Shown: positions 1 to 35,744 of the stretch, piece by piece
How the letters are laid out: the number at the start of each line of letters is the position of its first letter
Numbering within the stretch: the first letter of the stretch is position 1
Virus record (IMG/VR): IMGVR_UViG_3300033148_004507
Source: a virus
Lineage: Duplodnaviria > Heunggongvirae > Uroviricota > Caudoviricetes
Direction: 5' to 3' (one strand)
DNA: 64,000 nt
Position numbers and translations under genes: made by a program
The notes under the pieces: model-generated
The model's input: the letters and a program-made list of their open reading frames with translations, nothing else
What the model was told of the DNA's origin: nothing
Databases searched by the model: none

Positions 1-3000
1 TATTTACAAGGGTGCGAACCAAGACGTGAACGGCTCTGACGGTTTCCGAGATAATTCATATATAACGGGCAGTGCGGGAGCCAGTACAGACCATTATCCG
101 TTCATGGACTGGCCGATTGTAGTTCAAAGAATAAACGCTGATGCGGGGACAGACGATATTGTATATCTAGGGATTCATACATTCGATGGCTCTGGCAGTA
201 ACATAGTAATTGGCAGTATCACAAACTATACCTGGACGTTCACGGACATCGTACCTCAGACTTTGTATGATGTCTCGCCAATATATGATTTTTCGAGCCT
301 TGGGGATTATAATATCATGCTTACAGTAACGGATGGGAATGGTAATTATTCCTTTGATAATGTGACAATTACGGTAGACGATATGATTACTAATGCGGGG
401 CCAGACCAAATTTCCAAGAGGCTTGTTACCTTTGACGGCTCTGGTTCGATGGACGATGGTTCTATACAGAACTATACATGGTCTTGTACAAACTATGTTG
501 GATTTACCGACCTTTGGGGCGTAAATCCATCCTTTGATTTCAATGTGTCTGGGATATATTATGTCATGCTAACATGTGAGGATGATATTGGAAATCTAGG
601 ATATGATAATATGACGGTTACTATTATTATCATATCGCCTGTAGCTGATATGGGCCTCGACCAATCGTGGCTTAGAGAAATACATACTCTCAATGGCTCT
701 AGCTCTTACGATTCAGATGGGGATATTATAAATTATACATGGACTTTCATAGATGTCATACCACAGATATTATATGGCATAAATCCTCAATATGATTTCA
801 CGAATTTAGGTAATTTTGAAATTACGCTGGAGATTACAGATAATGATTGGAGAGTGGATACTGATACGGCATGGTTCAATATAAGTAATCAATTACCTAT
901 GGCTGATGCTGGCCCAGACCAGAATACTAAAAGGCTTGTCACATTTGACGGTTCAGGCTCAGATGATTCGGATGGCTTGATAGCTAATTACACTTGGACT
1001 TTCACCTATGATAGTACTCCGCAGGAACTCTGGGGGGTTTCACCAGTATTCGATTTTAACGTGAGTGGTATATACGATGTGATGTTGACAGTTATGGATA
1101 ATGATGGAGCTATGGCTTTTGATAATGTGACCATTACAATATCCATCTCTCCACCTGTAGCCAATGCAGGCACAGACCAAGGAACCACGAAAGGAACCTA
1201 TGTATTTGATGGTTTGAGTTCAGACGACTCGGATGGTTCAATCGTTAACTACACTTGGACATTCAATTATGACGGCCCCATACAGGAGCTTTGGGGTGTC
1301 TCTCCATCATTCGATTTCGATATTGATGGTATTTATACGGTTATGTTAAAGGTGACGGATGATGATTGGAGGTCAGATTATGATAACATGTCGGTAATAA
1401 TAAATTACGTAAACCCGATAGCTAATGCTGGCATTGACCAGGATACAAAGAGGCTTGTGATATTTGACGGTTCAGGCTCAGACGACCCTGATGGATTGAT
1501 AGCCAATTATACATGGACATTTAATTATGACGGCACTCCACATGAGCTTTGGGGGGTTTCACCTATGTTCGACTTTAACATCAGTGGGGTTTATGGTGTG
1601 GTGTTAATGGTTACAGATGATAATAATCTTATAGATTTTGATGACGTGACAATCACGATAAATATCGTGGAACCCATAGCAAATGCAGGTCTTGACCAAT
1701 CTGGATTTAAGAGGCTGTATTCTCTTGATGGTTCAGGCTCTTCTGATTCGGATGGGTTAATAGTCAATTATACATGGTCATTCATATACGATGGAGTGCC
1801 ACGTACACTCTATGGAATAAATCCGTCCTTTGAATTCAATATAACAGGAGATTATGAGATTACTTTAAATGTAACTGATGATGATTGGAGATGTGATGAT
1901 GATGTTATGTGGGTTCATATAACGAATCTTAATCCAATCGCCGATGCAGGTATGGATTATACTACAAAGAGGCTTGTCACACTTGATGGCTCTGGTTCTT
2001 CAGACCCCGATGGCTGGATTACGAATTACACCTGGAATTTCACATATGATGGTTCATTTGTGGAATTGTGGGGTGAGAATCCTGTATTCGATTTCAATAT
2101 AGGTGGTCTGTACGTTATAGTGCTTACGGTCACAGACAACGATAATTCAACATCATTCCACATCATGAGGCTCACTATCGTGATTCAGACACCCGTTGCC
2201 GATGCAGGTTTAGACCAGGTAGGGTATAAAAGAGAGTATTGGTTGAGTGGTTCAAGCTCATATGACTCTGACGGAATAATTGCGAACTACACCTGGAATT
2301 TCACATACGATGGCTCTCCTGTTGTGCTTGTGGGTATGAGTCCATCTTTCATCTTTAATATAACAGGAACTTATGAAATCACTCTAAATGTAACAGATGA
2401 TGATGGTAGGTATGCTACTGATACTATATTGATTGGTGTTAATAACAAGCTACCTGTTGCTGATGCGGGGCCAGATAGAATTGCGAAGCGTTTTGTAGCA
2501 TTTGATGGTTCAGGCTCTTCCGATTCAGACGGTTCAATAGCAAACTATACTTGGATATTCACATTTGATGGTATGCAGAGGGTACTGTGGGGTATAAGCC
2601 CAATCTTTGATTTCAACATCGGTGGCGTGTATGCTATTACATTACAAGTCACAGATGATGATGGTGATATAAGTGTGGATAGTTCAAAGATAACAACTAA
2701 TATATTATTCCCTTCAGCCAATGCAGGAATTAATCAAACGGGATTCAGTGGCGTGTATTGCCTAAACGGTTCTCTATCGTCAGACCTTGACGGTGTTATT
2801 GTAAATTATACATGGACATTCGATGATGGTGGGGGCAGGGTTCTGTTTGGCATATATCCTCAATACGATTTCCATAACACAGGGAGTCATGAGATTACAT
2901 TAGTTGTCAGAGATGACGATGCCAGGATGTCTGTGGACACGGTATATGTAGATATAATCGATAGGGGATACCCAATTGCTGATGCAGGTCTTAATCAGAC

Positions 3001-3382
3001 AACGAATGGTGTTGCTGTACTGGATGGTACGGGGTCAATAGATTCGGATGGCTCGATAATAAATTATACTTGGGAATTCACATATAATGGAAGCCAGGTT
3101 AACTTATGGGGCATTGCACCTCAGTTCAATTTCGCTATTGACGGCACTTACGATGTTGTACTGACTGTCACAGACAATGATGAACTAATTGGAATTGGCA
3201 ACGTAACCATAACAGCCAATAGCATGATTCCCGATGGTGGTGGGGATGGTGGCGATGGGGATGGCAACACAACGAATACAATTGATAAAACAACCCTGTT
3301 GGCGATATTCGTAATAGTGGTATTGGGTATTCTGGTATTGTTCATAGCCATGAGGAGAAGTGAGGCACGAATGTTGGATTGA
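1..3382 (+). CDS. PKD-repeat cell-surface protein, 5' partial (frame open to window edge), C-terminal TM anchor
   Basis: 1118-aa ORF; ~12 tandem ~86-aa modules each with DGSGSxDxDGxIxNYTWxF...VTDxD signature (PKD/Ig-like); Gly/Asp-rich linker then hydrophobic helix LLAIFVIVVLGILVLFIAM + RR tail; no N-terminal signal peptide at GTG26 so true start likely upstream. Confidence 0.8.
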   Translation, partial: IYKGANQDVNGSDGFRDNSYITGSAGASTDHYPFMDWPIVVQRINADAGTDDIVYLGIHTFDGSGSNIVIGSITNYTWTFTDIVPQTLYDVSPIYDFSSLGDYNIMLTVTDGNGNYSFDNVTITVDDMITNAGPDQISKRLVTFDGSGSMDDGSIQNYTWSCTNYVGFTDLWGVNPSFDFNVSGIYYVMLTCEDDIGNLGYDNMTVTIIIISPVADMGLDQSWLREIHTLNGSSSYDSDGDIINYTWTFIDVIPQILYGINPQYDFTNLGNFEITLEITDNDWRVDTDTAWFNISNQLPMADAGPDQNTKRLVTFDGSGSDDSDGLIANYTWTFTYDSTPQELWGVSPVFDFNVSGIYDVMLTVMDNDGAMAFDNVTITISISPPVANAGTDQGTTKGTYVFDGLSSDDSDGSIVNYTWTFNYDGPIQELWGVSPSFDFDIDGIYTVMLKVTDDDWRSDYDNMSVIINYVNPIANAGIDQDTKRLVIFDGSGSDDPDGLIANYTWTFNYDGTPHELWGVSPMFDFNISGVYGVVLMVTDDNNLIDFDDVTITINIVEPIANAGLDQSGFKRLYSLDGSGSSDSDGLIVNYTWSFIYDGVPRTLYGINPSFEFNITGDYEITLNVTDDDWRCDDDVMWVHITNLNPIADAGMDYTTKRLVTLDGSGSSDPDGWITNYTWNFTYDGSFVELWGENPVFDFNIGGLYVIVLTVTDNDNSTSFHIMRLTIVIQTPVADAGLDQVGYKREYWLSGSSSYDSDGIIANYTWNFTYDGSPVVLVGMSPSFIFNITGTYEITLNVTDDDGRYATDTILIGVNNKLPVADAGPDRIAKRFVAFDGSGSSDSDGSIANYTWIFTFDGMQRVLWGISPIFDFNIGGVYAITLQVTDDDGDISVDSSKITTNILFPSANAGINQTGFSGVYCLNGSLSSDLDGVIVNYTWTFDDGGGRVLFGIYPQYDFHNTGSHEITLVVRDDDARMSVDTVYVDIIDRGYPIADAGLNQTTNGVAVLDGTGSIDSDGSIINYTWEFTYNGSQVNLWGIAPQFNFAIDGTYDVVLTVTDNDELIGIGNVTITANSMIPDGGGDGGDGDGNTTNTIDKTTLLAIFVIVVLGILVLFIAMRRSEARMLD
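390..3230 (+). repeat. in-frame tandem DNA repeats, period ~258 bp, ~11 full units (PKD modules)
   Basis: P[IV]A[DN]AGxDQ ... NYTW ... VTDDD blocks recur at ~258-bp spacing (approx. 397, 643, 900, 1156, 1417, 1675, 1935, 2195, 2455, 2713, 2975). Confidence 0.7.
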
Positions 3383-3388
3383 TAAAAT

Positions 3389-3415
3389 GAGCAAAAACTA
3401 TTTGAGTATAATGGA
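3389..3415 (+). promoter_or_regulatory. BRE/TATA-like promoter variant (GCAAAAACTATTTGAGTATAAT)
   Basis: resembles the recurring GCAAAACTATTTATACT cassette; ~15-40 nt upstream of ATG 3428. Confidence 0.4.
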
Positions 3416-3427
3416 GTATTGAGAAGT

Positions 3428-3760
3428 ATGAAATCTAAAATATTAATCTGGGCGACTGTGGTGGCATCTGTATTTATAATATCGGTGATGCTCCTTCCCG
3501 CAGTCTTAGCAGACCCTACAAATGAAACGGCTGATGTAAATATTACAGACGATGATGATGATTGGTATGATTCGCAATGGGGTGGTGACACTGGCAATGA
3601 TGAATATACGGAGCCGATTGTAGATAATGGGACAAGGAGTGAGCCTGGGTTTTTCGATGACATCTGCGGGTCAACCTTCTGCACTACTTCATTTTTAGGT
3701 GCAGTCTGTATTCCCACATACTATATTCAGAGGAAGAAAAAGAAGGAGAGTAAGCTGTGA
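3428..3760 (+). CDS. small secreted acidic protein (signal peptide)
   Basis: N-terminal hydrophobic signal KILIWATVVASVFIISVMLLPAVLA; ATG 3428 in-frame within track ORF 3419..3760. Confidence 0.55.
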   Translation: MKSKILIWATVVASVFIISVMLLPAVLADPTNETADVNITDDDDDWYDSQWGGDTGNDEYTEPIVDNGTRSEPGFFDDICGSTFCTTSFLGAVCIPTYYIQRKKKKESKL

Positions 3761-4905
3761 GAAAACTCGCCCTGGTCTTAGTAGTTCTTCTAACAATCAA
3801 TCTATTTGCAGGTTTCGCTATGGCCGAGGAGGTCACTGTTAAATCCATATCTCCAAGCCCTTATTATGATAGCCAACCAAAGGTCTGGGGGGATTATGTG
3901 GTTTGGAGGAGGGCAATCAATCAGAATGCTAATGAATACATTGAACTCAAAGAGCCAAGTTGGATAATGATTCATGATTTAACTACTGGTGATACGTGGA
4001 ACATCACTCCAGCAGACACTCAAATCAGTGGCGAGGTTTATCATCACGCTCAATCTCCTGACATATCTAATGGGAAGGTAGTGTACGAAGCCCAGACTGG
4101 TCTGAATTCATTCGACACGGCATTATTCATATACAACATATCTTCAAAGATGACTTGGGAATTGCCGATATTATCTACTGCTTATGCTCATGGGCATTTG
4201 CATTGCATATCTGGTGATTGGGTTGCTTACACCGACATCCAGAACGGTTCACGGCAAGCTTATCTTTATAATTATCAGGATAGAATTTACAGGACAATCA
4301 TGGGTGTAAATAGTGGCAACTCAACTTATGGGATGGTCATGTCAAACAACTATGTGGTGTTGACCGTGAAGAACGAATCGGGTGCGTATGGTATCATCAC
4401 ATACGGTATCGGTACAGGCAAGACTGGTTACATAACAATAGAGGGTGCAGGGGTGTTGATGGCAACCTCTGTCTATAACAGCAAGGTCGGTATAATATCC
4501 AAGCAGGTCGGCGAAGCGGAGTGGTCTGCACAAATATATGTCATCGGGACGGGGTTCATAGATTCTTTTAATGCAAATGGCATATTGGTATGGGATGAGC
4601 AAGTCGCATATTATAACGGTCACAACATATATCTCATGCAGGACGATGCTGATGGTTGGGTAATCATATACGGCCAAAATCAGAGATTAGGTGACTTATA
4701 TAAAAATACGGTTGTCTGGTCTGACAATGAGAATAGCGAGGCACTGTACGGGGATGCCAGAGATGACTACGACATATATATAAGGACAGTAATTACAGAC
4801 GAGGAGATATTTATCGATAGGATGACAATCGTGGGAGTTATTGTGGTAATAATACTTATCGCAATTTTATTAAGAGTAAAGATGTACTCTGGGAATGAGA
4901 AATGA
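3757..4905 (+). CDS. secreted protein with signal peptide and C-terminal TM anchor
   Basis: 382 aa; N-term LALVLVVLLTINLFAGFAMA, C-term IVGVIVVIILIAILLRV; start overlaps upstream stop. Confidence 0.6.
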   Translation: MRKLALVLVVLLTINLFAGFAMAEEVTVKSISPSPYYDSQPKVWGDYVVWRRAINQNANEYIELKEPSWIMIHDLTTGDTWNITPADTQISGEVYHHAQSPDISNGKVVYEAQTGLNSFDTALFIYNISSKMTWELPILSTAYAHGHLHCISGDWVAYTDIQNGSRQAYLYNYQDRIYRTIMGVNSGNSTYGMVMSNNYVVLTVKNESGAYGIITYGIGTGKTGYITIEGAGVLMATSVYNSKVGIISKQVGEAEWSAQIYVIGTGFIDSFNANGILVWDEQVAYYNGHNIYLMQDDADGWVIIYGQNQRLGDLYKNTVVWSDNENSEALYGDARDDYDIYIRTVITDEEIFIDRMTIVGVIVVIILIAILLRVKMYSGNEK

Positions 4906-5636
4906 GCATACTCCGAGATGATTCTAAAACTCATGTATACGAGGATGAGATTAAATACATCCCGAAGAGAATTATCATCAAGAAAGACGATTTATGGGCT
5001 GTAGATTACATCTGGACACGGCCAGAAACATTGAGCAAGAAGGCCACTCGTATTGATGTGGACAGGAGTGTATTGCAGAAGCTCATGGATGTGATGACTG
5101 TCGGTGAGAAGTTAGCTCCTCCAGTGATTTACTTTGACATTAATAAAGGTAGAATTAAAATCAAACACGGCCATCATAAAATAAGAGTTGCAAAATCTCT
5201 AAATATTAAACACATCCCGATTTTAATACTCAACATGAAAGATGGCAAGCCAATAAACCCGTCAGAGGTTGCTCCGAAAGATAGGTATTGGAAGTACGTT
5301 GCATTTGGCGATTATGAGATGGATACACCAGAGAACATATTATTGGATGAGCAGGTCGAGGAGTGGGAGTCCAAGCCAGACTTGATTACCATTAAACAAT
5401 TGATGGCTAATGATGAGTGGCAAAAGGTTATGGGGGTCATGCATGGTCGTTGGAAGATGCATCCTGGGAACAATATTCGAATTTTAAGAAAGTATCTTGA
5501 TGGTGGGCGAGATAGATTGAAGGTCTTGAGGGTGCATATTTATCTAACTGGCATTGGTTTCAAGAACGGTACAATTCAACATTGGAAGATTGATGAATTG
5601 GTGTCTGAGCTTGAGAAGGTAATCTCATCGAAATAG
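4902..5636 (+). CDS. ParB/Sulfiredoxin-like nuclease-domain protein
   Basis: PPVIYFDINKGRIKIKHGHHKIRVAKSLNIKHIPI matches ParBc/Srx core (DGHHR-type motif followed by IP). Confidence 0.55.
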   Translation: MSILRDDSKTHVYEDEIKYIPKRIIIKKDDLWAVDYIWTRPETLSKKATRIDVDRSVLQKLMDVMTVGEKLAPPVIYFDINKGRIKIKHGHHKIRVAKSLNIKHIPILILNMKDGKPINPSEVAPKDRYWKYVAFGDYEMDTPENILLDEQVEEWESKPDLITIKQLMANDEWQKVMGVMHGRWKMHPGNNIRILRKYLDGGRDRLKVLRVHIYLTGIGFKNGTIQHWKIDELVSELEKVISSK

Positions 5637-5666
5637 TTTTATATAAAGACTACATACATACCACCT

Positions 5667-5813
5667 ATGGTAGCAGAAGAGGGTGGCGTAAAACTAAAAT
5701 GTCCACGGAAATTGTGTTTGCACGTTTGGACGTTTCGGGGTAAAGCAAAGTTCTACACATCATGCCCAATTTGTAAGACATCAGTAAGGGTTAATCAGGA
5801 GAGGGTAGGATGA
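5667..5813 (+). CDS. 48-aa zinc-ribbon protein (not in ORF track)
   Basis: ATG 5667...TGA 5811-5813, frame-checked; CPRKLC ... CPICK; TTTTATATAAAG TATA-like box at 5637; stop overlaps HNH start (ATGA). Confidence 0.45.
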   Translation: MVAEEGGVKLKCPRKLCLHVWTFRGKAKFYTSCPICKTSVRVNQERVG

Positions 5814-6223
5814 AAAGGGGGTCGGCCCAATATAAAAAATGGCGAGAATCTGTGTTGATTAGGGATGAATATACTTGTCAACATTGTGGATTTAAACCTC
5901 ATATCTTAGATATTGGTATCGTTGCTCACCATATATTAAATTATAAAACTTACCCTCTATACAGGTATGACTTGAATAATGGGTTAACATTATGTCATAA
6001 ATGTCATAGGAGACAACACCCAACCTGTATGGGTTCTAAATTTATTCTATATAAAAAAGTTATTGAATTTAAGAATGGCAAATGTGGTGTAGATGTACCG
6101 TTGCATTGGGCGGGAAGAAAGATATTGGTGTATAAAGTAGGTAAATATGGTTTAACTCTACCTACAAAAGATGAATGTATAATGATAGATTGCGGAGATA
6201 GTTATCTGGAAGGTGTGGAATGA
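5810..6223 (+). CDS. HNH endonuclease
   Basis: CQHCG...VAHHI...NNGLTLCHKCH: CxxC-HH-N-CxxCH HNH signature. Confidence 0.8.
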   Translation: MKRGSAQYKKWRESVLIRDEYTCQHCGFKPHILDIGIVAHHILNYKTYPLYRYDLNNGLTLCHKCHRRQHPTCMGSKFILYKKVIEFKNGKCGVDVPLHWAGRKILVYKVGKYGLTLPTKDECIMIDCGDSYLEGVE

Positions 6224-6957
6224 TGAAAATCGATACCAAGATAACTAAAATCATCAAGGATTCTGAGGTCATCAGCATCACCAATGTCGGTAGCCACTTA
6301 TGGGGTATGAACCACGAAAACAGTGATGTAGATTATGGTCTTATCTACGTGGCCCCAAGTAGAAACATATTGCGTGGCAATGCCTTCACAGAATCTAAGC
6401 AGGTTGAAATAGGTAATAATGATTGGACAATCCATGAGCTTGGAAAGACTGTGAACATGCTAATGAAAGGCAATGTAAACTATGTCTGGATTGTAACATC
6501 GCCGTTGTCTTTACTATCTACTCTTTATATCGAAGAATTAAAAAAATTATATTTGAATAATATGTCTGCTAACATTTATCACAATATCAAAGGATTGGCA
6601 AAACACAATTACAAGAAATATTTGGTTGAGGGGAGGCTAGCTGATGGTGAACCATATTCGAATCTTGATAAGAAACGAAAGATAATCATTCGCACTCTTA
6701 AATTCGGTATTAATCTACTGGATGGTAATGGGATAATATATGAGCCAGTGGAGGGCGAAGTTAACGATAATCTAGTTAGACAATTCATGGATAATCTGGA
6801 AAATGCATATGAGCATACATCATTGCCAGAGAATCCAGACCGTGAAAAATATTATGATTATTTGGAAGATGTAAGAAGATACTTGTGTCAGCGACCACTC
6901 CGTGACTGGCATTGGTCAGGAGATGACTCTGAGAACTCAGACTCATGCGTTGATTAG
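6220..6957 (+). CDS. Pol-beta superfamily nucleotidyltransferase (minimal-NTase/KNTase-like, 245 aa); last ~25 codons lie inside the IscB-element left end
   Basis: GSHLWGMNHENSDVDYG = GSx9-11DxD NTase motif; size and helical C-terminal half resemble KNTase-type enzymes. Confidence 0.6.
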   Translation: MMKIDTKITKIIKDSEVISITNVGSHLWGMNHENSDVDYGLIYVAPSRNILRGNAFTESKQVEIGNNDWTIHELGKTVNMLMKGNVNYVWIVTSPLSLLSTLYIEELKKLYLNNMSANIYHNIKGLAKHNYKKYLVEGRLADGEPYSNLDKKRKIIIRTLKFGINLLDGNGIIYEPVEGEVNDNLVRQFMDNLENAYEHTSLPENPDREKYYDYLEDVRRYLCQRPLRDWHWSGDDSENSDSCVD

Positions 6958-8339
6958 GAGGCGACAAGAAACATGAAAACTATGCAAAAGTTAGAAGGGC
7001 GAGATACATACACACCTACGGATGCTCCACAAGTCCGTAGCCACTGTGATTCTGTGATTAAACATGACTGCGAGGTAGGTGAAGTGTTACAGGATTTAAA
7101 AACCCTTTCTAACAACTCCGATGTGGACTTACTCCAGCATACAGGAGGGCTTAAGGCCACTGTGTATGCATATGTGCTAAACAAGAACGGGAAACCACTG
7201 ATGCCCTGCAAGCCTGCCAAAGCAAGGCATTTGTTGAAGGAAGGCAGGGCAGAGGTGGTCAATAGGACTCCCTTCACGATTCGCTTATTATGGGATTGTG
7301 AAGATAATGTGAAACCAATAACACTTGGCATCGATGCTGGATATGGCAAAGTTGGTTTTAGTGCCGTATCTGATAAGAAAGAATTGGTGTCTGGGGAACT
7401 GACTTTAAGGAAAGGCATCTCCAAACTGATAGAGCAGAGAAGTAACTATAGAAGGACACGAAGGAACAAACTCTGGCATCGGCCACCTAGATTCCTTAAC
7501 AGAGCTAAACATAAAGGCTGGCTTGCACCTAGCATCCAACACAAGCTTGACAGCCATGTAAGACTTATCGAACAGATGAAATCAATCTTGCCGATAACAA
7601 ATGTTATTGTCGAGGTTGCGAATTTTGACATCCAGAAGATAAAGAATCCAGACATTAAAGGAGTCGAATACCAACAAGGGGAGCAGATGGGCTTTTGGAA
7701 TGTTGGAATGTTCGAGAGTATGTCTTACACAGAGACAACCATACTTGTCAGCACTGTAAGGGTAAAAAGAAAGATAAGATATTACAGGTGCATCACATCA
7801 ATAGCAAGAAAGAGGGTGCTACAGATAGGCCAGAAGAGTTATTGACAGTCTGTAAGACCTGCCATGATGGGCATCATGATGGTATCGATATAATACCAAT
7901 GAAGGAAATCAAGAACTTCAAGCCAGAGACTTTCATGACGATGGTTCACTGGAAGCTCACAGAATTATTGGATTGTGAACACACGTTTGGTTATATCACA
8001 AAAACCAATAGAATTAAGCAAGGTCTTGAAAAGAGCCATGTCAATGATGCATTTATCATTGCGGGTGGGGCAAAGCAGGAACGGTGCTTGCCACATGATG
8101 TCAAGCAAGTAAGACGAAACAATAGGTCAATACAGATGAATCGAAAGGGTTACAAGCTAGCAATAAGAAGAAAAAGATATAAATTACAACCAAATGATTT
8201 AGTAAGGTTTGAGAGGGTCAAACGCCGAGTCAAAGGAGTACACTGTTATGGTTCAAGAGCAATATTAGATAATAAGAAATCAGTTGCAATAACTAAAATA
8301 AAGTTGATATGCTATGGTAAGGGGATATGTTATGTGTAA
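6880..8339 (+). mobile_element. IS200/IS605-type non-autonomous element carrying iscB (copy 1); left boundary approximate
   Basis: ~95 nt upstream of ATG 6973 (TCAxCGACCAC ... TCTGAGxAxTCAGACTxxTGCGTTGATTAGGAGGC) plus the entire ORF are repeated at 13230..14553; homology ends exactly at the stop codons; no tnpA present. Confidence 0.7.
6973..8339 (+). pseudogene. iscB: IscB (OMEGA RNA-guided nuclease, Cas9 ancestor), frameshifted by an 8-bp tandem duplication
   Basis: PLMP domain (NGKPLMPCKPAKARHL); RuvC-I ITLGIDAGYGKVGFSAV; Arg-rich bridge helix RSNYRRTRRNKLWHRPPRF; RuvC-II ITNVIVEVANFD; HNH CQHCKGK...QVHHIN...CKTCHDGHH; RuvC-III HVNDAFIIAGG. TGGAATGT duplicated at 7696-7703/7704-7711 splits the ORF into 6973..7845 and 7695..8339; removing one copy restores ...FWNVREYVLHRDNHTCQHC... 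in frame. Confidence 0.85.
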
Positions 8340-11768: not shown

Positions 11769-12230
11769 TTGTTGAAAGAATTCACATTGCGAAAGCGAAT
11801 TAGGTTCGGGACGACTAAGATTCCATATGAAAAAACGTATGGTGAGATACTGGCACTTCTCAGAAAGCATGGTTGTAACAGAATTGCGACCATGATGGAC
11901 GGCGATATGGAGATGATTGCCTTTGAGTTGGATGAAACTCCGTATATGATAAAGATTCCGATTGTTTATATCGGCGACCAACCTGAAGATAAGATAGGGA
12001 TACGATTGGTAAAATACTGGCTTGAGACAATCTTGGAATTATCTAAGCAGAGAATTATTGATATGGAATATCTGATGTTGGGTACAAGGATGGTCAAGGT
12101 TGATGGTAAGAGTATGACTGTCAAGGAAGCCTTTGATAATGTTCCGACCCAAAACCTTCTCGATAGCCTATCTGCGAGGACTAAACAACTTGAGGGTGAT
12201 AAGTTCATTGATGTGGGGGGTAATGAATGA
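11769..12230 (+). CDS. hypothetical protein
   Basis: 153-aa ORF, no recognisable motif. Confidence 0.45.
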   Translation: MLKEFTLRKRIRFGTTKIPYEKTYGEILALLRKHGCNRIATMMDGDMEMIAFELDETPYMIKIPIVYIGDQPEDKIGIRLVKYWLETILELSKQRIIDMEYLMLGTRMVKVDGKSMTVKEAFDNVPTQNLLDSLSARTKQLEGDKFIDVGGNE

Positions 12231-12932: not shown

Positions 12933-13120
12933 AGATAACTAAAAAAGAAGCTAAAATGCATGGCATCGACTATAATATTATTAATGGTTGCACTGCTTTT
13001 AGCCTCAAAGACGACACATGGGGTTGTAATCGTTGCTGTCAATTTTGTGGTTGTTATGAAGCAGATTACATAAACTATATGCATGAAACAAGCCAATTAC
13101 CAATGAAGGAGGGTAAATAA
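12914..13120 (+). CDS. Cys-rich mini-protein
   Basis: CNRCCQFCGC. Confidence 0.45.
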   Translation: MPRRKLKITKKEAKMHGIDYNIINGCTAFSLKDDTWGCNRCCQFCGCYEADYINYMHETSQLPMKEGK

Positions 13121-13229
13121 TGAGTTTTGCAGGGTATGGTGTACAACCAGAAGATTTCTGCTATTTATTCACACCGGATGAAGGGATGTATGAGGAGTTA
13201 AAATGAGTCGAGAATTGGTATACATCTGT

Positions 13230-14553
13230 GAGCTTGGTAAGGGTGAGTCAACGACCACACAGAACAGAAATGGTCTGGGGGCGAGTCTGAGCAATCAGAC
13301 TTGTGCGTTGATTAGGAGGCAATGAAAAGAATGAAAACCATGCAGAAGTTAGACGGGAGAGATACATACACACCTACGGATGCTCCACAAGTCCGTAGCA
13401 ACTGTGATTCTGTGATTAAACATGACTGCGAGGTAGGTCAAGTGTTACAGAGTTTGAAAACCCCGTCTAACAACTCCGATGTGGACTTACTCCAGCATAC
13501 AGGAGGGCATAATGCCACTATGTATGCATATGTTATAAATAAGAATGGAAAACCACTGATGCCCTGCAAACCTGCCAAAGCAAGGCATCTATTGAAGCAA
13601 GGTAGAGCCAAAGTAATCAACAGGAAGCCATTTACAATCCGACTATTATGGGATTGTGAAGATAATGTGCAACCGATTACGCTAGGCATCGATGCAGGCT
13701 ATAGCAAAGTTGGTTTCAGTGCCGTGTCTGAGAGTAAGGAATTGATGTCTGGGGAGCTAACATTACGAAAAGGCATCAATAAACTCATCGAGCAGAAAAG
13801 CAACTATAGAAGAACAAGACGGAATAAACTTTGGCATCGCCCACCGAGATTCCTGAACAGAGCCAAACCAAAAGGTCGCCTACCTCCGAGCATCCAACAT
13901 AAGCTCGACAGCCATATTAGGCTTGTCGAACAAATGAAAGCAATCCTGCCGATAACAAATGTTATTGTCGAGGTTGCGAATTTTGACATCCAGAAGATAA
14001 AGAATCCAGACATTAAAGGAGTCGAATACCAACAAGGGGAGCAGATGGGCTTTTGGAATGTAAAACCTGTCATGAAGAGCATCATGCGGGTATTGATATA
14101 ATCTCAGCAGTGGCAATCAAGAACTTCAAGCCAGAAACCTTTATGACGGTGGTTAATTGGAAGCTTACAGAACTATTAAATTGTGAGCATACCTTTGGCT
14201 ACATCACGAAGCATAATAGGATTAAGCAAGGTCTTGCAAAGAGTCATGTAAATGATGCGTTTATAATTGCAAGAGGTCATAGTCAGGGGCGATGCAAATA
14301 TTATGAAGTCAATCAAACGAGGAGAAATAATAGAAGCATACAATTGAATCGAAAAGGCTATAAACCATCTATCAGAAGAAAAAGATATAAGCTCCAATCC
14401 AATGACTTAATTAGAGATTCACAAAACAACACTGTTCTGAGAGCAAAGGGTGTATGCTCATATGGGCGGTCAATAAAATTGGAAGATGGGAGATATACAA
14501 ATGTTAAAAATATAAAATTAATATGTTATGGTAAAGGGATATGCTATATATGA
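13230..14553 (+). mobile_element. IS200/IS605-type iscB element (copy 2), left boundary approximate
   Basis: direct repeat of 6880..8339 (by-eye ~85% identity); preceded by a 200-nt noncoding stretch 13121..13321. Confidence 0.7.
13322..14553 (+). pseudogene. iscB: IscB copy 2, inactivated by ~139-bp out-of-frame deletion removing the N-terminal half of the HNH domain
   Basis: same PLMP/RuvC-I/bridge/RuvC-II as copy 1, then ...FWNV | KTCHEEHH...HVNDAFIIARG; CQHCKGK...QVHHIN segment absent; ORF split into 13322..14101 and 14053..14553 at the same TGGAATGT site as copy 1. Confidence 0.8.
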
Positions 14554-15052: not shown

Positions 15053-15300
15053 AAGGTGTTGAAGCTGTAGTCAAATCCATGCTCTATGCACTGGTTGGTG
15101 TTATGGTAGTTATGGTTGTTATGTCATTCTACTTCATGTATTGCGCATATCGGGCATTTCAAATCGGAACCGATATTGGCAACTTTGTTGGTGGGGCATT
15201 GTTGGTACTGTCTGGGGCCATATTACTTGGGTCAATTGGAATCCAGCAATTTGTGTTCCCGTTGTTGGAGATTAAAACAGATGGTGGTGAAAAAGAATGA
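15049..15300 (+). CDS. small membrane protein
   Basis: 83 aa, 2-3 hydrophobic helices. Confidence 0.5.
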   Translation: MKGVEAVVKSMLYALVGVMVVMVVMSFYFMYCAYRAFQIGTDIGNFVGGALLVLSGAILLGSIGIQQFVFPLLEIKTDGGEKE

Positions 15301-15773
15301 AAATCCCAGATAGAATAAACTATAGTGCCTTGAACTTTCCGATATGTAATTTCGTGGTTCTTGAGGAGGCTGAGAGGTTGATAATACCTGATTACCAGAG
15401 AGATTATATCTGGTCTGATACTCAGAAGGGGTTGTTGATAGATAGCATCTTTAAAAGCATACCGATTGGCAATATATTCCTTAACGAGAGGGGTGGCAGT
15501 CCAGCCTATGAAATTATTGATGGTCAGCAAAGACTTACTACACTATTTAAGTTCATGAATGATGAGTTTGCTTACCAGGATGTGTACTACAGTGAATTGC
15601 CAGATAAGTACACTGCGAGGATAAGTCATTTCGTAGTCCAGACTTATATCACTTACTACACAGATGTTAAGGACATCCTCAGATTGTATTATGTATTGAA
15701 TTGGGCAGGGACACAACATAATGTGGAGGAGATGATTAAGCTTAAGAGGCAGGCGGGTGAAGAGGATGGATGA
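15297..15773 (+). CDS. DUF262 (ParB-like, GmrSD N-terminal-type) domain protein, stand-alone
   Basis: IIPDYQRDYIWSDTQKGLLIDSIFKSIPIGNIFL...EIIDGQQRLTTLFKF: canonical PxYQRxYxW and DGQQR motifs; no DUF1524/HNH nuclease partner domain. Confidence 0.8.
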   Translation: MKIPDRINYSALNFPICNFVVLEEAERLIIPDYQRDYIWSDTQKGLLIDSIFKSIPIGNIFLNERGGSPAYEIIDGQQRLTTLFKFMNDEFAYQDVYYSELPDKYTARISHFVVQTYITYYTDVKDILRLYYVLNWAGTQHNVEEMIKLKRQAGEEDG

Positions 15774-21444: not shown

Positions 21445-22553
21445 TGGCTGGAACCAGGCACTCATCGAAATTCTTCAAGCCTACTGAGAAGTTCTTGCAT
21501 TGGTTCAAGGGCTATGTTGGTAACACTCCCGTTACAGATGCAGGCTGTGGTACGGGCCACTTCGCCAAGGCTCTGAATGAAATCGGAGTGATAAAGATTC
21601 TCGGTCTTGAGATTTGGCCGTGTTCGAATCCAGAATACGATACAATCATTGGGCAGGATGCGACAACGTTTGCCTATTCACCAGGCTCTATAGTTACTAT
21701 AGTGCGACCAAATAGGGGTGAATGGATTCATAAGACCATAGAACAAGCCCTCTACACTGCCGAGCAGGTTGTGTACATCGGCTTGCCAAAGCATTGGGAG
21801 GATGACATCAGACCTTTGATTGGCGAATACGACATGTGGGATATTGTCGATAAGTATCTTCATGAACCTGTGGGTGAGGATGGCGAGTATGCTTACATCA
21901 TCAAGAAGAAGTCTGGCAACCCTAAAGAACCGATTATGCAACCTGTTATTGTAGAAGAGCCTGAAGAAACCTATCTGCCTCCAGTGAGGGGGATGATGAG
22001 GAAGAAAGATGCCCCTCCCAAATACATCCGAAAGCCAGCCAGCAAGAAAGGCAAGCCGTGTACTAAGTGTGGTGGTGAAAAATATTACGATGACGATAAT
22101 CCAGACGGCATGTGGTGTTATAACTGTGGTCTTGTAAACGTAACTGGCCTGAATTACAATGAAAAGTTCGATTTCAGTGAATATGAAAACGATGATGACG
22201 ATGGGTATTATTTGATTGGTGGTCGGAAAATCCAAATCCAGACCCTACTTAATTATCTCAGATTCAGAAGAGGGTCTGGGGCAGAACGTGTACTGTATCA
22301 CAAACTTGTACTGCTGGAGGCTGGCTTTGGGGAAAGGCATGGCGATAGCGATTACGATGTAGAAATAAGACGTAATAATAATTGGGTAGATTACTTCGAG
22401 AAGTGGATTGAAGCTTATATGGGCGACCCTCTTGGGGATATTGCATGGGAAAAGGCGAATCTTGATTATTGCTCGAAGTGTAACAAGGAAATTAAATTCG
22501 GGGATGCTAGGATGAACTATCCTTCAGGTGTTGTATGCATGGAGTGTGGATAA
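21420..22553 (+). CDS. class-I SAM-dependent methyltransferase domain fused to Cys-rich zinc-ribbon regions
   Basis: VTDAGCGTGHFAKAL (motif I) ... ILGLEI (motif II acidic); CTKCGGEKYY...CYNCG and CSKCNKE...CMECG; no DPPY/NPPY DNA-MTase motif IV seen. Confidence 0.6.
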   Translation: MASGVDTMMAGTRHSSKFFKPTEKFLHWFKGYVGNTPVTDAGCGTGHFAKALNEIGVIKILGLEIWPCSNPEYDTIIGQDATTFAYSPGSIVTIVRPNRGEWIHKTIEQALYTAEQVVYIGLPKHWEDDIRPLIGEYDMWDIVDKYLHEPVGEDGEYAYIIKKKSGNPKEPIMQPVIVEEPEETYLPPVRGMMRKKDAPPKYIRKPASKKGKPCTKCGGEKYYDDDNPDGMWCYNCGLVNVTGLNYNEKFDFSEYENDDDDGYYLIGGRKIQIQTLLNYLRFRRGSGAERVLYHKLVLLEAGFGERHGDSDYDVEIRRNNNWVDYFEKWIEAYMGDPLGDIAWEKANLDYCSKCNKEIKFGDARMNYPSGVVCMECG

Positions 22554-23224
22554 TGCAGAAATACTCTAAACCTTTGAGGATAAAGCATCATAAAATAAAT
22601 CTCAATCCTAAGAAGAGATACCTGGGTGACTCAGACGTTAAGAAACTACTCTCTGGAAAGGTCTATGTTGAGGAGAAGCTAGATGGCTCTCAGTGTGGGA
22701 TTGCGTTCAAGGGTGGCAAGCCAATCGTGTATACGAGAAATAGTCACTTATCAGAGTATGATAAAAGGGTGGCCTTCAAGGGTCTTTGGGATTGGGTATG
22801 GTCTAACTTAGATAAGGTTGAGAGCATACCGAAGGGATGTAGGCTGTGTGGGGAGTGGCTGTATGTTCAGCATCATGTTGTCTACGATAAGCTCCCAGAC
22901 TACTTTATGGCATTTGATATTCTGGATGAGAGGACTGGTAAACTATTGCCGTATAAGTCTAAGGTTGCCATATTCGAGGCTCTTGGAATTTCATATGCTC
23001 CACTTGTTTTAGAAGGCATGGCTACTAAAGATGATATTTTTGAGGCATCTCAGGGGTTCAGCAATTTCAGTACGGTGGATGCCAGAGAGGGCGTGGTTGT
23101 CAAGTCCGACAAGTCTGATTTCACAGGAAAACTTGTAGCCCAAGAATTTCTGGACGGCATTGAGGATGTCGGGCATTGGACATCTATAGTCACTGCGAGA
23201 TTTAATAAATTAGGGGTGGTATAG
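22553..23224 (+). CDS. minimal nucleotidyltransferase of the ATP-dependent ligase/capping-enzyme superfamily (RNA-ligase-like)
   Basis: motif I EEKLDGSQ (KxDG), motif III/IV region CGEWLY...FMAFDI, motif V EGVVVKSDKS; TAATG start at 22553. Confidence 0.6.
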   Translation: MQKYSKPLRIKHHKINLNPKKRYLGDSDVKKLLSGKVYVEEKLDGSQCGIAFKGGKPIVYTRNSHLSEYDKRVAFKGLWDWVWSNLDKVESIPKGCRLCGEWLYVQHHVVYDKLPDYFMAFDILDERTGKLLPYKSKVAIFEALGISYAPLVLEGMATKDDIFEASQGFSNFSTVDAREGVVVKSDKSDFTGKLVAQEFLDGIEDVGHWTSIVTARFNKLGVV

Positions 23225-29969: not shown

Positions 29970-30329
29970 ATGGGTGAGGATGATAAGATTGAGAGGGGCG
30001 AAGTGATTCATCTGGTGCTAACGATTGTAGTTGTGATAGTTATGGCATTGGTTACTTGGGGATTCTTCAATTTCATGGAAGATAGGATGGCAGAGCCAGA
30101 ATATACGGAATATGATTTCGCATTAGGTAATACGACAGTAAAATATAATGGCGAGACTCTGAAAATCAAAATCAGAGACGAAGGCTACTATAAGATTTCA
30201 AAAGTTTATGAGAAAACCAATTCTTCAGAACATTGGTCGGGATGGGATTTAGGGGAAGCTCCACTCGATGAAAGAATAAATGGGGTTAATGTCGTTGAGG
30301 GTTACCAACGAGAAGTTAATTGGTACTAA
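29970..30329 (+). CDS. membrane-anchored protein
   Basis: ATG 29970 right after upstream TGA; TM helix VIHLVLTIVVVIVMALVTWGFF. Confidence 0.5.
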   Translation: MGEDDKIERGEVIHLVLTIVVVIVMALVTWGFFNFMEDRMAEPEYTEYDFALGNTTVKYNGETLKIKIRDEGYYKISKVYEKTNSSEHWSGWDLGEAPLDERINGVNVVEGYQREVNWY

Positions 30330-30348
30330 TTAGCTAAAAACTAATTGG
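30317..30348 (+). promoter_or_regulatory. cluster of palindromic CTAATTAG-family sites (TTAATTGG, CTAATTAG, CTAATTGG)
   Basis: at the transition from + strand array to minus-strand island; same motif family at 35745-35865 and 60656-60735. Confidence 0.45.
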
Positions 30349-30355
30349 TAGATAT

Positions 30356-30775
30356 TTATTTTCCGCCCTTGTTTGTGACGATTCTCTTTTTTATGTATGG
30401 ACAGCCCCTATTGATGATATACAAATCATCTCTTCCCCAATAATCATTTTTACATTGAGTATTATACAAAGGTTTGTGTGTGAAAATCAAAAAATTTTCA
30501 ACATCTCTAATTAATAATTTGGTGATTCTTTGATAATCTGATTTCTCAATATACCCTAACCAGAAAGATAATCCTTGTGTATTCATATCAAAATCTCGTA
30601 GGTTATTTTTAATTTCAGCAACCACATCCATGTGGTAGGCAATACCCATGTAGATTATTCCTCGCCCTCTTTGAAAAGCATAGAAATATGCATCCTCATA
30701 TTCTCTCAATTTACTATATGGTACTTTCACCCAATTAAGTGTCATTCCCTTTTTTGGTTTCACTTTTATTTTCAT
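30356..30775 (-). CDS. hypothetical protein (minus strand)
   Basis: start chosen at MKIKVKPKK preceded (in minus sense) by GGTGAGAGGTGG SD; track ORF extends to 30871. Confidence 0.45.
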   Translation of the reverse strand: MKIKVKPKKGMTLNWVKVPYSKLREYEDAYFYAFQRGRGIIYMGIAYHMDVVAEIKNNLRDFDMNTQGLSFWLGYIEKSDYQRITKLLIRDVENFLIFTHKPLYNTQCKNDYWGRDDLYIINRGCPYIKKRIVTNKGGK

Positions 30776-30921
30776 ATTCCACCTCTCACCGATATATGGA
30801 TGAGAAGCGAAAGGCATTTGGGGAAAGAGAATGGCTTGAATAATTAACAATAATAATTCTCCGCCCCTCACTTCTCAACATATGCATAATTTCGCACAAT
30901 ATAAATGTTTTTGACCATTTA

Positions 30922-31680
30922 TTAAGGCAACTCTTTTCTACAGCTCCCACAGAAATTGTAACCATTTGGATTGGTATCTCCGCAATACGGGCAAAACTTG
31001 TCTATCTTATCGTCTCCAGGTACTAAATTATCATTGTCGTCTATCTTATCATCATCGTACTCTTCCTCTGGTAATCCATATTTTGCAATAAGCTCTGCAC
31101 CAACTGAAACAAGAATTCCACCTATGACACATAGCACCCATCCATATCTTAAGCCTAGTATACTCATTGCTTCGCCAAATGAAATGTCATTAGAAAGAGA
31201 AACAATGTAGAATCCATGTATTAAAACACCTTGGGAAATCAAAGCGATTAAGAATCCTCCAAGATATAGCAATCTACACACATAATATTCTCTTACGGAT
31301 AGAACAATCATGAATAGTATGGCACATAATCCTGCAATCATTGGTAAAAAGTCAAGATACCAGATGTCAAAATAAAGACCAATATTCCATCCAGTAATCC
31401 CACCATAAATTCCATTATAAAATGGCTCAGACATCCCTCTAAAGAATAATATGATTCCAAAGAAGCCAACAGCAGTGCCTATCACAAGAAAAATTGGAGT
31501 TTCTCTATCACCAAAAACTATAGTCTCTTCTTTGACAGACTCATCAGATACAATCATTAAAAACCCAAATATACATAAAAGAAATGATATAGGAAAACTA
31601 ATGTCTACCCACCAGAATAAAAGGCATATTACTGCTAATATAAACATGAATGACCCGATTATACCCAGTTTAATCCTCAT
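30922..31680 (-). CDS. polytopic membrane protein with C-terminal zinc ribbon
   Basis: 6-7 TM helices; C-term FCPYCGDTNPNGYNFCGSCRK; GGTGA SD upstream. Confidence 0.6.
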   Translation of the reverse strand: MRIKLGIIGSFMFILAVICLLFWWVDISFPISFLLCIFGFLMIVSDESVKEETIVFGDRETPIFLVIGTAVGFFGIILFFRGMSEPFYNGIYGGITGWNIGLYFDIWYLDFLPMIAGLCAILFMIVLSVREYYVCRLLYLGGFLIALISQGVLIHGFYIVSLSNDISFGEAMSILGLRYGWVLCVIGGILVSVGAELIAKYGLPEEEYDDDKIDDNDNLVPGDDKIDKFCPYCGDTNPNGYNFCGSCRKELP

Positions 31681-31694
31681 CTCTTCACCGTAAC

Positions 31695-32324
31695 CTAGTC
31701 ATCAAACCTCTTATTTCGTTTATTGACTGCATATAATGGAACTATAATTGCAGGTAATATCGCCATAGTACACACTTCCCCACCAGTATCTTCTCCACCA
31801 GTATCTCCACTAGAACCTCCTCCTGTGTCATCTCCTGTAATAACCACAGTATCATCACCGTTATCCACGACAGAATCCTTGATTATCTGGATAGTGTAGG
31901 TGTATTCCTTAGTGGTTGCAATATCCCATTCAGACCACACACCTTCTTCTGATGCAATTACTTCGATTGTAGCTATATGACTTCCAATATCTACTTGGAA
32001 TTCACTAGGCACAGTTACTTCCCAGGAGAAAGTATAGCTATTCCCTGCTTCTACAATAACACTCGTTTGACTGGATGTATAGCCAGTCATAGCTAAATTC
32101 CAATCAAAAAATAGGTGTACTCTCTCAACCCTCAATGATTCAGAATATGTGTTTGTCAGTACGTATTTAAAAGTATACGCATAATTATTCTTGATACCCT
32201 CTGTTGGCTCTAGTGTTCCAGATACTTCCCATTTATCATATCCCTCAACTGGAATGGCTATTATAATCATTCCTAGGATTATTAGCCAAACTACAATGAA
32301 TCCATATTTTCCCACGATTCTCAC
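31695..32324 (-). CDS. secreted/surface-anchored protein (signal peptide, Gly/Asp/Thr linker, C-terminal TM)
   Basis: N-term FIVVWLIILGMIIIAIPV, DTGGGSSGDTGGEDTGG linker, MAILPAIIVPLYAV + NKRNKR tail; GTG start. Confidence 0.55.
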   Translation of the reverse strand: MRIVGKYGFIVVWLIILGMIIIAIPVEGYDKWEVSGTLEPTEGIKNNYAYTFKYVLTNTYSESLRVERVHLFFDWNLAMTGYTSSQTSVIVEAGNSYTFSWEVTVPSEFQVDIGSHIATIEVIASEEGVWSEWDIATTKEYTYTIQIIKDSVVDNGDDTVVITGDDTGGGSSGDTGGEDTGGEVCTMAILPAIIVPLYAVNKRNKRFDD

Positions 32325-32348
32325 CTAATCGCCTAATGCTGGAAAACT

Positions 32349-32372
32349 ATTTTAAAGTATCCATACGGTACG
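32349..32372 (+). promoter_or_regulatory. promoter-cassette variant GGAAAACTATTTTAAAGTAT in divergent intergenic region
   Basis: resembles GCAAAACTATTTATACT; ~45 nt upstream of GTG/ATG 32415-32420. Confidence 0.4.
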
Positions 32373-32414
32373 CATACCACAGAATACCACATATAGAGAA
32401 AGGACAATCTGGAA

Positions 32415-32606
32415 GTGATGCCAAAGGAATCAAAACGCTATAAATACAAAACAGTAACACTTCCAGAGCCACTCATGGAAGAAATCAAACAATTCATTGA
32501 TGACCATCCCGAACTAGGATATGGTAGTGTTACTGAGTTCATTAAAGAGGCATCTCGTGGTCAAATGAAAGAGTATTATCTTATTATGAAGATGAAGATG
32601 AAGTAG
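32415..32606 (+). CDS. ribbon-helix-helix (CopG/Arc-like) DNA-binding protein
   Basis: KRYKYKTVTLPEPLMEEIKQFIDDHPELGYGSVTEFIKEA = beta-strand + two helices typical of RHH regulators. Confidence 0.55.
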   Translation: MMPKESKRYKYKTVTLPEPLMEEIKQFIDDHPELGYGSVTEFIKEASRGQMKEYYLIMKMKMK

Positions 32607-32655
32607 TTTTGACCACAAAATCGATATATAGTCGTAATCGTTTTAGCAAAGCTAT

Positions 32656-33417
32656 ATGGCTGAAGAAAATGAAGAATGGGAAGAAATGAATAATAAAATA
32701 AAAAGAAAATTAAGTAAAGAAAATGAAGCATTAAGAAGAGAGAATAATAATTTAACTAGAGAGAACATGCAATTGAAAAAAGATAATATTGCTTACAGAG
32801 GGCAGTATAATCTTATTGATGATAGATTTTATGAAATTAATAGTCCAGAGTTGGAAGAATCAGTTATTCATAAAATTTCTGAAGAATTGATAGATGCTTT
32901 AATAAAATGCGATAAATTAGATAATGATGAATATCTATCAAGATATATGCAGATGTATATGGATAAGCCAGATGGGGATTATTATGTGTTCAATTGGGAT
33001 AAGGCAAAGAAACCAGAAAGGTTACATCGGGGAGCTTATAAATTTCTTTTATCACAACTGCCAGAGCAATTACATTTCAAGCAAGAGAGAGAATCTTCAT
33101 TGTCACATTTAGGTAAAGGTGAAAGTCCGAATGAAAGTGACATAATAGGAATTTTAACTTATTTAGATGTAGATATTGCAAAGGGAGAAAGGGGAGCATG
33201 GAATGATTTTTGGATTGATATTATATATGCAAATATAGACAATAAATTAGGATTAAAACAATCTGATATGGTTCAGAAAAGCAAAGATAATTCTCATTCA
33301 TGGGGAAAAGAACCTATTAGGCTCGCTGTAAAAACCTTAAAAGAAAATGGCCTGTTGAAGAAAAAAGGAAGTCGTTATATTATTGATAAAACAAATCTAA
33401 AGATAATCTGTAAATAA
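32656..33417 (+). CDS. hypothetical protein with N-terminal coiled coil
   Basis: 253 aa; KENEALRRENNNLTRENMQLKKDN. Confidence 0.5.
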   Translation: MAEENEEWEEMNNKIKRKLSKENEALRRENNNLTRENMQLKKDNIAYRGQYNLIDDRFYEINSPELEESVIHKISEELIDALIKCDKLDNDEYLSRYMQMYMDKPDGDYYVFNWDKAKKPERLHRGAYKFLLSQLPEQLHFKQERESSLSHLGKGESPNESDIIGILTYLDVDIAKGERGAWNDFWIDIIYANIDNKLGLKQSDMVQKSKDNSHSWGKEPIRLAVKTLKENGLLKKKGSRYIIDKTNLKIICK

Positions 33418-33419
33418 GT

Positions 33420-35200: not shown

Positions 35201-35208
35201 TAATTTCT

Positions 35209-35724
35209 ATGTGCGAAAGAAAGAAAAGGCAATTATTAAATTTAATAGAAGTTCTTCTCGAAGATATTGAGAAAAATAAAGATGAATGGAACTTACCTAC
35301 CGATGATTCAGATACGCGTGAAGTGGAAGCATGGAATAGTGTACTCGCAATCCAAACAAAACAGCTTAATGATATTGTGAATAACGTTAGAAAGATGTAT
35401 GAAAATGATGAAACTTATGAATTATTAGGAGGGGTCAGGGTGCAGGAGATGATGTCATTTACACAACTATATCTCCCTGCACGAAAACTCTATGCTTTTG
35501 TGAAACATGATATTGAATATGAAGAAAACATTGAATTAAAATGGTTAAAAAATAGATATGAAGAATTAGGCATGTGGCAGAAGAAATTAGAGAAAGACAT
35601 CAAAGGTGTGCCAAATCGAGAAGAATGGGATGATTTTACACAGATGATGGAAGCCACCCTTGAGAATATCCAGACAAAAATTAATGAATTGGAAGAACTA
35701 TCTAAGAGAGGACTTGATTTGTAG
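35209..35724 (+). CDS. hypothetical coiled-coil protein
   Basis: 171 aa, helical/acidic. Confidence 0.45.
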   Translation: MCERKKRQLLNLIEVLLEDIEKNKDEWNLPTDDSDTREVEAWNSVLAIQTKQLNDIVNNVRKMYENDETYELLGGVRVQEMMSFTQLYLPARKLYAFVKHDIEYEENIELKWLKNRYEELGMWQKKLEKDIKGVPNREEWDDFTQMMEATLENIQTKINELEELSKRGLDL

Positions 35725-35744
35725 TGTAATTGAAGGTTACTAAT

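Follow-up and report, generated by a model that had tools for sequence, protein, structure and literature searches.

The window, the whole 64,000-nt stretch of DNA from a virus record that was analysed, carries two copies of a compact module on its + strand, in each of which a structured RNA is followed directly by a gene for the RNA-guided endonuclease IscB. A search of the entire window against the 4227 families of Rfam returned exactly two matches above the gathering score, both to HEARO (RF02033; gathering score 83 bits), the RNA now named IscB omega-RNA. The match in copy 2 spans 13247-13490 on the + strand (104.8 bits, E 1.5e-20) and that in copy 1 spans 6887-7132 on the same strand (90.3 bits, E 5.3e-17); both matches extend over the full model (positions 1-211 of 211), and the E values apply to the whole window against all 4227 families. 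In either copy, 29 nt separate the 3' end of the RNA scaffold from the start codon of iscB, which runs from an ATG at 13520 to 14553 in copy 2 and from a GTG at 7162 to 8339 in copy 1 (both + strand). Copy 1 follows an RlaP-family nucleotidyltransferase gene (6220-6957, +; PF10127) and copy 2 follows two short ORFs (13120-13205 and 13203-13325, both +), both modules being co-oriented with their upstream genes.

Omega-RNA scaffolds

An earlier note on this DNA had proposed a candidate omega-RNA directly upstream of iscB and in the same orientation, together with a covariance-model search and a folding analysis as checks, and the full-length HEARO matches above the gathering score in both copies bear this proposal out. 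By all sequence-level criteria tested, the two RNAs are members of the HEARO/IscB omega-RNA family, and it is very likely that 13247-13490 and the paralogous 6887-7132 constitute the scaffold of an IscB omega-RNA. The same model also matched a third copy of the module on another contig from the same sample (L003) and a distant relative (L005), these two relatives and the two window copies being the four modules compared below. Across 20 IscB loci sampled from viral contigs, HEARO was located upstream of iscB in 19.

Folding gave a concordant result. An RNAalifold consensus of 23 RNAs (both RNAs of the window, one from each of two close relatives and 19 from viral contigs) contained 42 pairs, with compensatory changes on both sides in 34 of them, in a set of sequences picked via covariance-model matches, a selection that favours structure. 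At one stem position a C-G pair in copy 2 is replaced by A-U in copy 1 and in L003. The central helices of the consensus were recovered from single-sequence folds of both window copies, with z-scores of -3.4 for copy 2 and -1.3 for copy 1, the latter not significant on its own.

The extent of the RNA differs from that first proposed (13121-13321), as only the last 75 nt of that interval (13247-13321) are scaffold and 126 of its 201 nt are not omega-RNA, while approximately 170 nt of the RNA lie within what had been read as the iscB ORF, to which the RNA had been placed entirely upstream. The conserved block reported upstream of both iscB genes is real and at the place given, with an alignment that begins at 6884 and 13244 and with the quoted strings present (GTCAxCGACCAC, then TCTGAGxAxTCAGACTxxTGCGTTGATTAGGAGGC); 5' of the earlier-read ATG it spans not about 95 nt but 78 nt (13244-13321, copy 2) or 89 nt (6884-6972, copy 1). 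The 200-nt stretch described as free of ORFs is so at a threshold of at least 60 aa, but contains the short ORFs 13120-13205 and 13203-13325. Conservation peaks in the 3' part of the scaffold (13322-13490), at 89-96% identity among the four modules, against 81-87% for the true iscB coding sequence. The following 29 nt (13491-13519, +, in copy 2), which comprise the 3' tail of the omega-RNA and the iscB leader, are 93-97% identical among the four, and a small hairpin was predicted within them in both window copies; the RF02033 model does not include the downstream structural elements of the RNA (Meers et al., bioRxiv 10.1101/2023.03.14.532601).

IscB proteins and reading frames

The iscB genes had been read from ATG codons at 13322 and 6973, whereas the true starts are ATG 13520 and GTG 7162, the points at which the PLMP domain begins. 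A Shine-Dalgarno sequence, AGGAGGG, lies at 13501-13507, 12 nt before the copy 2 start codon, and AGGAGGG likewise lies 12 nt before GTG 7162. From these starts, the repaired genes encode proteins of 391 aa (copy 2, repaired with the L001 assembly described below) and 389 aa (copy 1), which match the NCBIfam equivalog NF040563, 'RNA-guided endonuclease IscB', at 340 and 355 bits, respectively, against a cut-off of 175 bits. Pfam RRXRR and HNH domains were also matched, RRXRR with an E value of 1e-64 on the ORFs as assembled, and IscB structures in the PDB matched the copy 1 protein with E values of 1e-34 to 6e-37. The repaired proteins have the layout PLMP, RuvC I-III, bridge helix, HNH and C-terminal TID (TAM-interacting domain), with catalytic motifs present, and carry the motifs PLMP, GIDAG, RRTRRN, VEVANFD, HHIN...CKTCH and SHVNDA. 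Divergence is uneven along the protein, with a dN of approximately 0.3 in the C-terminal 90 residues, the TID, against 0.07 for the rest; such fast evolution of the TID would fit different target motifs for each paralogue.

As assembled, neither copy has an uninterrupted iscB reading frame in the window, each gene being split into two ORFs, and at face value neither would yield a complete nuclease. In copy 1 the frame is shifted by an 8-bp tandem duplication, GGAATGTT (7697-7712), and copy 2 lacks 150 bp present in copy 1, including the HNH core, with a frameshifted junction at 14058/14059. The same genome was represented in two further assemblies. The first (L001) is 100% identical to the window over 1-7581 and is free of both window lesions, with gaps of its own of 31 bp in copy 1 and 67 bp in copy 2; in the second (L002), copy 1 sequence gives way to that of copy 2 at an exact repeat common to both copies (7589-7703 and 13947-14061, +; 139 nt after repair). 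Every assembly lesion sits on this 139-nt repeat, and within each assembly both paralogues are affected at the same edge. Since the assemblies that lack the window lesions carry different ones on the same repeat, the interruptions of iscB are probably artefacts of mis-joins there. Copy 2 was also considered as a natural HNH-less, IsrB-like variant and rejected as such, as its gap causes a frameshift in addition and the HNH segment is present in L001.

Two readings of these observations would deny the modules a working RNA. One takes the conserved block for a duplicated promoter or 5' UTR followed by an N-terminal extension of IscB from ATG 13322 or 6973, with no RNA function. The frame is indeed open from both of these codons into iscB, and most homologues are likewise listed at 445-466 aa against the 389-aa core, gene callers adding about 60 residues alike; nevertheless, this reading is highly improbable given the full-length covariance-model match and the structural covariation. 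Further, variable columns in 13322-13490 show no excess at third codon positions (a 10:6:10 split by codon position, where the opening 300 nt of the true coding sequence give 20:13:54), the extensions of some homologues are frame-shifted relative to those of others, which argues against a conserved peptide, and the PLMP domain, with which solved IscB proteins start, aligns to residues 2-5 of the protein from 7162. On this substitution pattern, the stretch between the earlier-read ATG and the true start is evolving as RNA and not as protein, and the first 66 codons (copy 2) and 63 codons (copy 1) of the called iscB ORFs belong to an RNA gene and not to the protein. The other reading is that the modules are relics, with omega-RNA genes that are genuine by descent, two dead iscB genes and RNAs left partnerless and inactive. 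Each iscB is indeed split in the window by the duplication or the gap, but damage at a shared edge of one repeat, which differs between assemblies of one genome, is the pattern of assembly error and unlike that of independent mutations. The repaired ORFs are complete, and dN/dS among the four modules is approximately 0.1 with dS saturated at 0.8-1.6, indicating old paralogues under long-term purifying selection, such that decay to relics appears improbable.

Module boundaries, guides and flanking genes

Local alignment of the two copies extended, with gaps, from 6884/13244 to approximately 8363/14577, similarity thus setting in 3 nt 5' of the scaffold and ending at about the iscB stop codon. 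Over the 300 nt 5' of the four modules (upstream of 6887 and 13247 in the window, and of L003 and L005), pairwise similarity was no better than that of shuffled sequence, and the same was true of the 300 nt downstream, where no shared hairpin was present; nor were inverted repeats or terminal hairpins shared among the copies beyond the iscB ORF. A-rich sequence follows the modules downstream (TAATAAG, AAAAGAC, AATAAAC and TAAGGTA), with no clear common motif at this approximately placed boundary. The mobile unit is minimal: it begins with the scaffold and ends near the stop codon of iscB.

The guide of an IscB omega-RNA is carried immediately 5' of its scaffold. Inter-copy conservation drops right at the 5' end of the scaffold, as expected of a copy-specific guide, and the earlier interpretation of the point at which similarity between the copies stops as the junction of scaffold and guide is upheld by the absence of better-than-shuffled similarity further 5'. 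Because this similarity begins at 13244/6884, next to the scaffold start, the putative guides were placed directly 5' of 13247 and 6887, as AGCTTGGTAAGGGTGA (13231-13246, +, adjoining HEARO model position 1) for copy 2 and GTAAGAAGATACTTGT (6871-6886, +) for copy 1. The working guide of OgeuIscB is about 16 nt in length. That of MG35-1 is 24 nt (PMC9755519), and the guides drawn here at 16 nt may be longer at their 5' side, up to about 24 nt. The guide positions in the earlier note overlap these by 2 nt in copy 2 (13213-13232) and 6 nt in copy 1 (6857-6876). They lie 10-18 nt too far 5'.

The copy 1 guide sits within the 3' end of the RlaP gene, and the last 25 codons of that gene derive from guide and scaffold. 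Homologues of the RlaP protein terminate approximately 8-10 residues past a conserved 'VRR', whereas the protein in the window reads on for 25, in agreement with the earlier suggestion that copy 1 overlaps or replaces the 3' end of this gene. In the sole module-free relative found (L007), the RlaP protein is 83% identical and ends shortly past 'VRR', and nucleotide similarity to the window stops at 6879, 7 nt 5' of the scaffold. This stop, together with the termination of the homologues after 'VRR', indicates that the native RlaP 3' end was replaced by the module. The gene downstream of RlaP in L007 is unrelated to that in the window, so the relative does not provide a clean empty site.

The copy 2 guide sits within the 40-codon ORF 13203-13325, which reads from flank through guide into scaffold. 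This ORF was called as a 40-aa gene by the JGI gene caller in L001, L088 and L089, had no homologues in the searches made, and may be the remnant of a gene interrupted by the module. The 28-codon ORF 13120-13205 lies outside the omega-RNA; its ATG overlaps the preceding stop codon (TAATG) and a GGAGG lies 8 nt upstream, but it was not called by JGI and its status is uncertain. The modules thus occupy different kinds of site, after RlaP in copy 1, after a short ORF in copy 2, between genes in L003 and after a PKD-domain gene in L005. Screening for promoter-like sites 5' of the guides and for terminators gave nothing beyond chance, which fits read-through from the co-oriented upstream genes; a bias of IscB elements towards co-orientation with the upstream gene has been reported (Meers et al., bioRxiv 10.1101/2023.03.14.532601).

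A 126,219-nt contig bearing both marker proteins has its counterpart, in one sample, in two contigs of 84,152 and 42,548 nt, and the modules may therefore belong to an element of approximately 126 kb that carries three of them. PHROGs and Pfam searches of 20 large ORFs detected no capsid, terminase or portal protein; the matches were to one PHROG of unknown function and to PKD, RNA ligase, SPFH and IS4 transposase domains. The impression of a virus-like element comes from gene size, strand bias and relatives.

Mobility and relation to known systems

By analogy with characterised IscB systems, the omega-RNA would be transcribed from the + strand, probably as a read-through product of upstream genes in the same orientation, with a 5' end carrying 16-24 nt copied from the DNA just upstream (13231-13246 in copy 2 and 6871-6886 in copy 1), and would bind the IscB encoded directly downstream (starts at 13520 and 7162). 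The resulting ribonucleoprotein would be expected to cut double-stranded DNA that matches the guide and is followed by a target-adjacent motif (TAM) read by the C-terminal TID. The resident copy would be spared, as scaffold instead of the motif follows the guide-matching DNA in its own genome, while a module-free genome or allele, its two flanks directly adjoining, would be cleaved, with a module-bearing copy as the source for the repair. Such cutting and repair would restore or spread the module, the retention or homing role that has been shown for IscB of IS200/605 elements. The earlier note had looked to matches elsewhere for putative guide targets, and none emerged: neither guide has a second match within the 64-kb window at up to 3 mismatches, and exact searches with guide 20-mers found no match in viral (both guides), metagenome (copy 2) or genome (copy 1) collections. 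Such an outcome is expected if the guides target their own locus in its module-free state.

Whether the modules move as transposons or by homing was weighed against their boundaries and surroundings. It is possible, if far from assured, that they are classical non-autonomous IS200/605 (ISC) elements mobilized by a Y1 TnpA acting in trans, with unrecognised subterminal hairpin ends, one within the 5' stem of the scaffold and one within the 3' end of iscB. ISC elements have IscB as their signature gene, and related genomes bear the module at different positions, which implies mobility; tnpA occurs near iscB in only about 1.5% of cases, and non-autonomous members need none (Meers et al., bioRxiv 10.1101/2023.03.14.532601). 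Weighing on the other side, no Y1_Tnp match (PF01797) was present in the precomputed Pfam annotation of genes around the four modules, in regions read up to 10 kb per side, and there is neither similarity past the stop codon nor a shared inverted repeat at the far end. With TnpA absent nearby, the module is at best a non-autonomous element. The designation of the upstream block as an IS left end does not hold, as the IscB omega-RNA sits at the transposon's right end (Meers et al., bioRxiv 10.1101/2023.03.14.532601), and no IS200/605-type end, TnpA or empty site was found here. A rather unlikely, more specific reading is that the three modules are transposase-independent RNA-guided homing genes, which extend exactly from scaffold start to stop codon, take their guides from the 3' end of the preceding gene, spread among co-infecting relatives by cutting module-free alleles and, through the fast-evolving TID, recognise paralogue-specific TAMs. 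Searches for an empty site returned no module-free counterpart: a search of IMG/VR with RlaP gave nothing, a metagenome scan with the protein encoded at 11769-12230 gave pattern matches and no relative, the source samples apparently lying outside the collection, and exact look-ups of the proteins flanking copy 2 retrieved filled contigs only.

Compared with the HEARO/omega-RNAs of OgeuIscB (PDB 7UTN, 7XHT) and MG35-1, the window RNAs have the same covariation-supported helices and full-length model match, and likewise lie on the same strand directly 5' of iscB with a variable guide and a conserved scaffold. They differ in having an open frame through the 3' two-thirds of the RNA. Relative to the HEARO model they are longer, at 244-246 nt against 211 positions, with a 5' hairpin region that is extended and varies more. 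The ISGst IscB of G. stearothermophilus (Meers et al.) similarly pairs an omega-RNA with a co-oriented iscB, in the absence of TnpA and with a flank-derived guide. In contrast to ISGst, no recognisable left or right ends, transposon-adjacent motif, donor joint or in-trans TnpA were found here, and inter-copy similarity ends at the stop codon. The modules also resemble the free-standing homing endonuclease genes of phages, such as the T4 Seg and Mob families, being compact, selfish, transposase-free, located between virus genes or into their 3' ends, and at different sites in related genomes, except that the target would be read by a flank-copied RNA guide and not by the protein, and that homing is here an inferred property.

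A virus-like genomic context is shared with previously described virus-associated HEARO/IscB (Goltsman et al. 2022; Clostridium phage c-st), and more than 16% of HEARO-encoding fragments have been classed as viral or prophage-derived (PMC9755519). As IscB/HEARO on viral contigs has already been reported, the present modules are a further example of a known RNA-guided nuclease module. Unlike other virus-associated examples, they comprise three diverged paralogues (about 83% nucleotide identity, dS of approximately 1) in what is apparently one element of about 126 kb. Their main value is the correction of annotation, and no new category is opened; they add two omega-RNAs in the window and a third copy on a contig from the same sample, and yield compact IscB variants (389-391 aa) from an uncultivated, virus-like element. 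Several diverged paralogues that apparently share a genome, are minimally bounded and lack a transposase offer a natural test bed for persistence or spread by homing alone. Near-identical phage records were sought and none was found, and a search for distant phages recovered only the IscB genes of Clostridium phage c-st and of one faecal phage. On IMG/VR contigs, IscB relatives number at least 488, and several of these contigs carry two copies.

An open frame across the omega-RNA

Upstream of both iscB copies, the intervals 13322-13519 and 6973-7161 contain no stop codon, are in phase with iscB and cover the omega-RNA over its 3' two-thirds. Most of the 120 homologues listed (alignment A1) likewise keep this frame open; their gene calls are 445-466 aa versus a 389-aa core, and an 'MQKL' start is frequent. 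The variable sites of this stretch among four copies, in contrast to what a codon-like pattern would give, are distributed 10:6:10 over the codon positions, and the frame shifts between some homologues within the stretch upstream of the iscB core. For both of these reasons the stretch is classed as RNA, despite its avoidance of stop codons.

Within the iscB copies themselves there is an exact repeat (7589-7703 and 13947-14061), which reaches 139 nt once the lesions, probably assembly artefacts, are repaired from other assemblies of the same genome. The paralogues carrying it are otherwise approximately 83% identical with saturated synonymous sites, and the repeat looks like a gene-conversion tract. 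It also holds all the lesions of the three assemblies.

Scaffold flanks and modules in relatives

A short CTTG(G/T) string is common to the nucleotides directly 5' of the scaffold in three cases: ACTTGT in copy 1 (6880-6886), GCTTGGTAAGGGTGA in copy 2 (13233-13246) and ACTTGGAG in L005, a distant relative (ENA k141_1097540, 6608-6619). With n=3, this likeness may be due to chance. In copy 1, the string coincides with 7 nt that are absent from the similarity to the module-free relative L007.

A third omega-RNA/IscB module, with a HEARO score of 95.2 bits and an intact 453-aa call, lies at 9914-11362 on contig L003 (Ga0366824_1000216) from the same sample; the contig also carries a tRNA (4565-4635). 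This module probably belongs to the same ~126-kb element as those in the window, since contigs of 84,152 and 42,548 nt add up to about the length of a 126,219-nt contig. In L005, the IscB module occupies 6620-8063 and its scaffold overlaps the final 17 nt of a PKD-domain gene; an 86-aa Cas12f1-like_TNB (TnpB) remnant lies a few kb upstream (3872-4132). RAGATH-18 RNAs are tied in the literature to IS607 TnpB, and Clostridium phage c-st carries one (1706-1766) ~1 kb upstream of its HEARO/IscB module (2768-2985).

Gene content of the window and possible host

RNA-repair-type genes comprise the RlaP nucleotidyltransferase (6220-6957) and an RNA ligase (22535-23224). Immediately upstream of RlaP, a 137-aa ORF (5810-6223, plus strand) weakly matches the HNH part of the IscB model NF040563 (E 1e-6, 28 bits) and possibly encodes a free-standing HNH endonuclease. 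Within the set of species-representative genomes, RlaP relatives occurred only on three contigs of ~80-108 kb (L091-L093; 38-43% identity) binned as Bathyarchaeota and Chlorobiaceae, L091 and L093 being Bathyarchaeota MAG scaffolds. Thorarchaeota and Thermoplasmata are among the named IscB relatives. Together, these relatives hint weakly at an archaeal host.

Other genes encode a protein of 1118 aa that carries 12 PKD domains (26-3382) and a GmrSD_N domain protein (15297-15773); no capsid or terminase was recognised in the window (PHROGs and Pfam, 20 large ORFs). GC skew is strongly positive over the whole window, with almost every gene on one strand. At 30000-36000 there is a low-GC island (0.34-0.36 versus ~0.42) with minus-strand ORFs and reversed skew, within which lies an IS4-type DDE transposase (33639-35141; PF01609 and DUF772).
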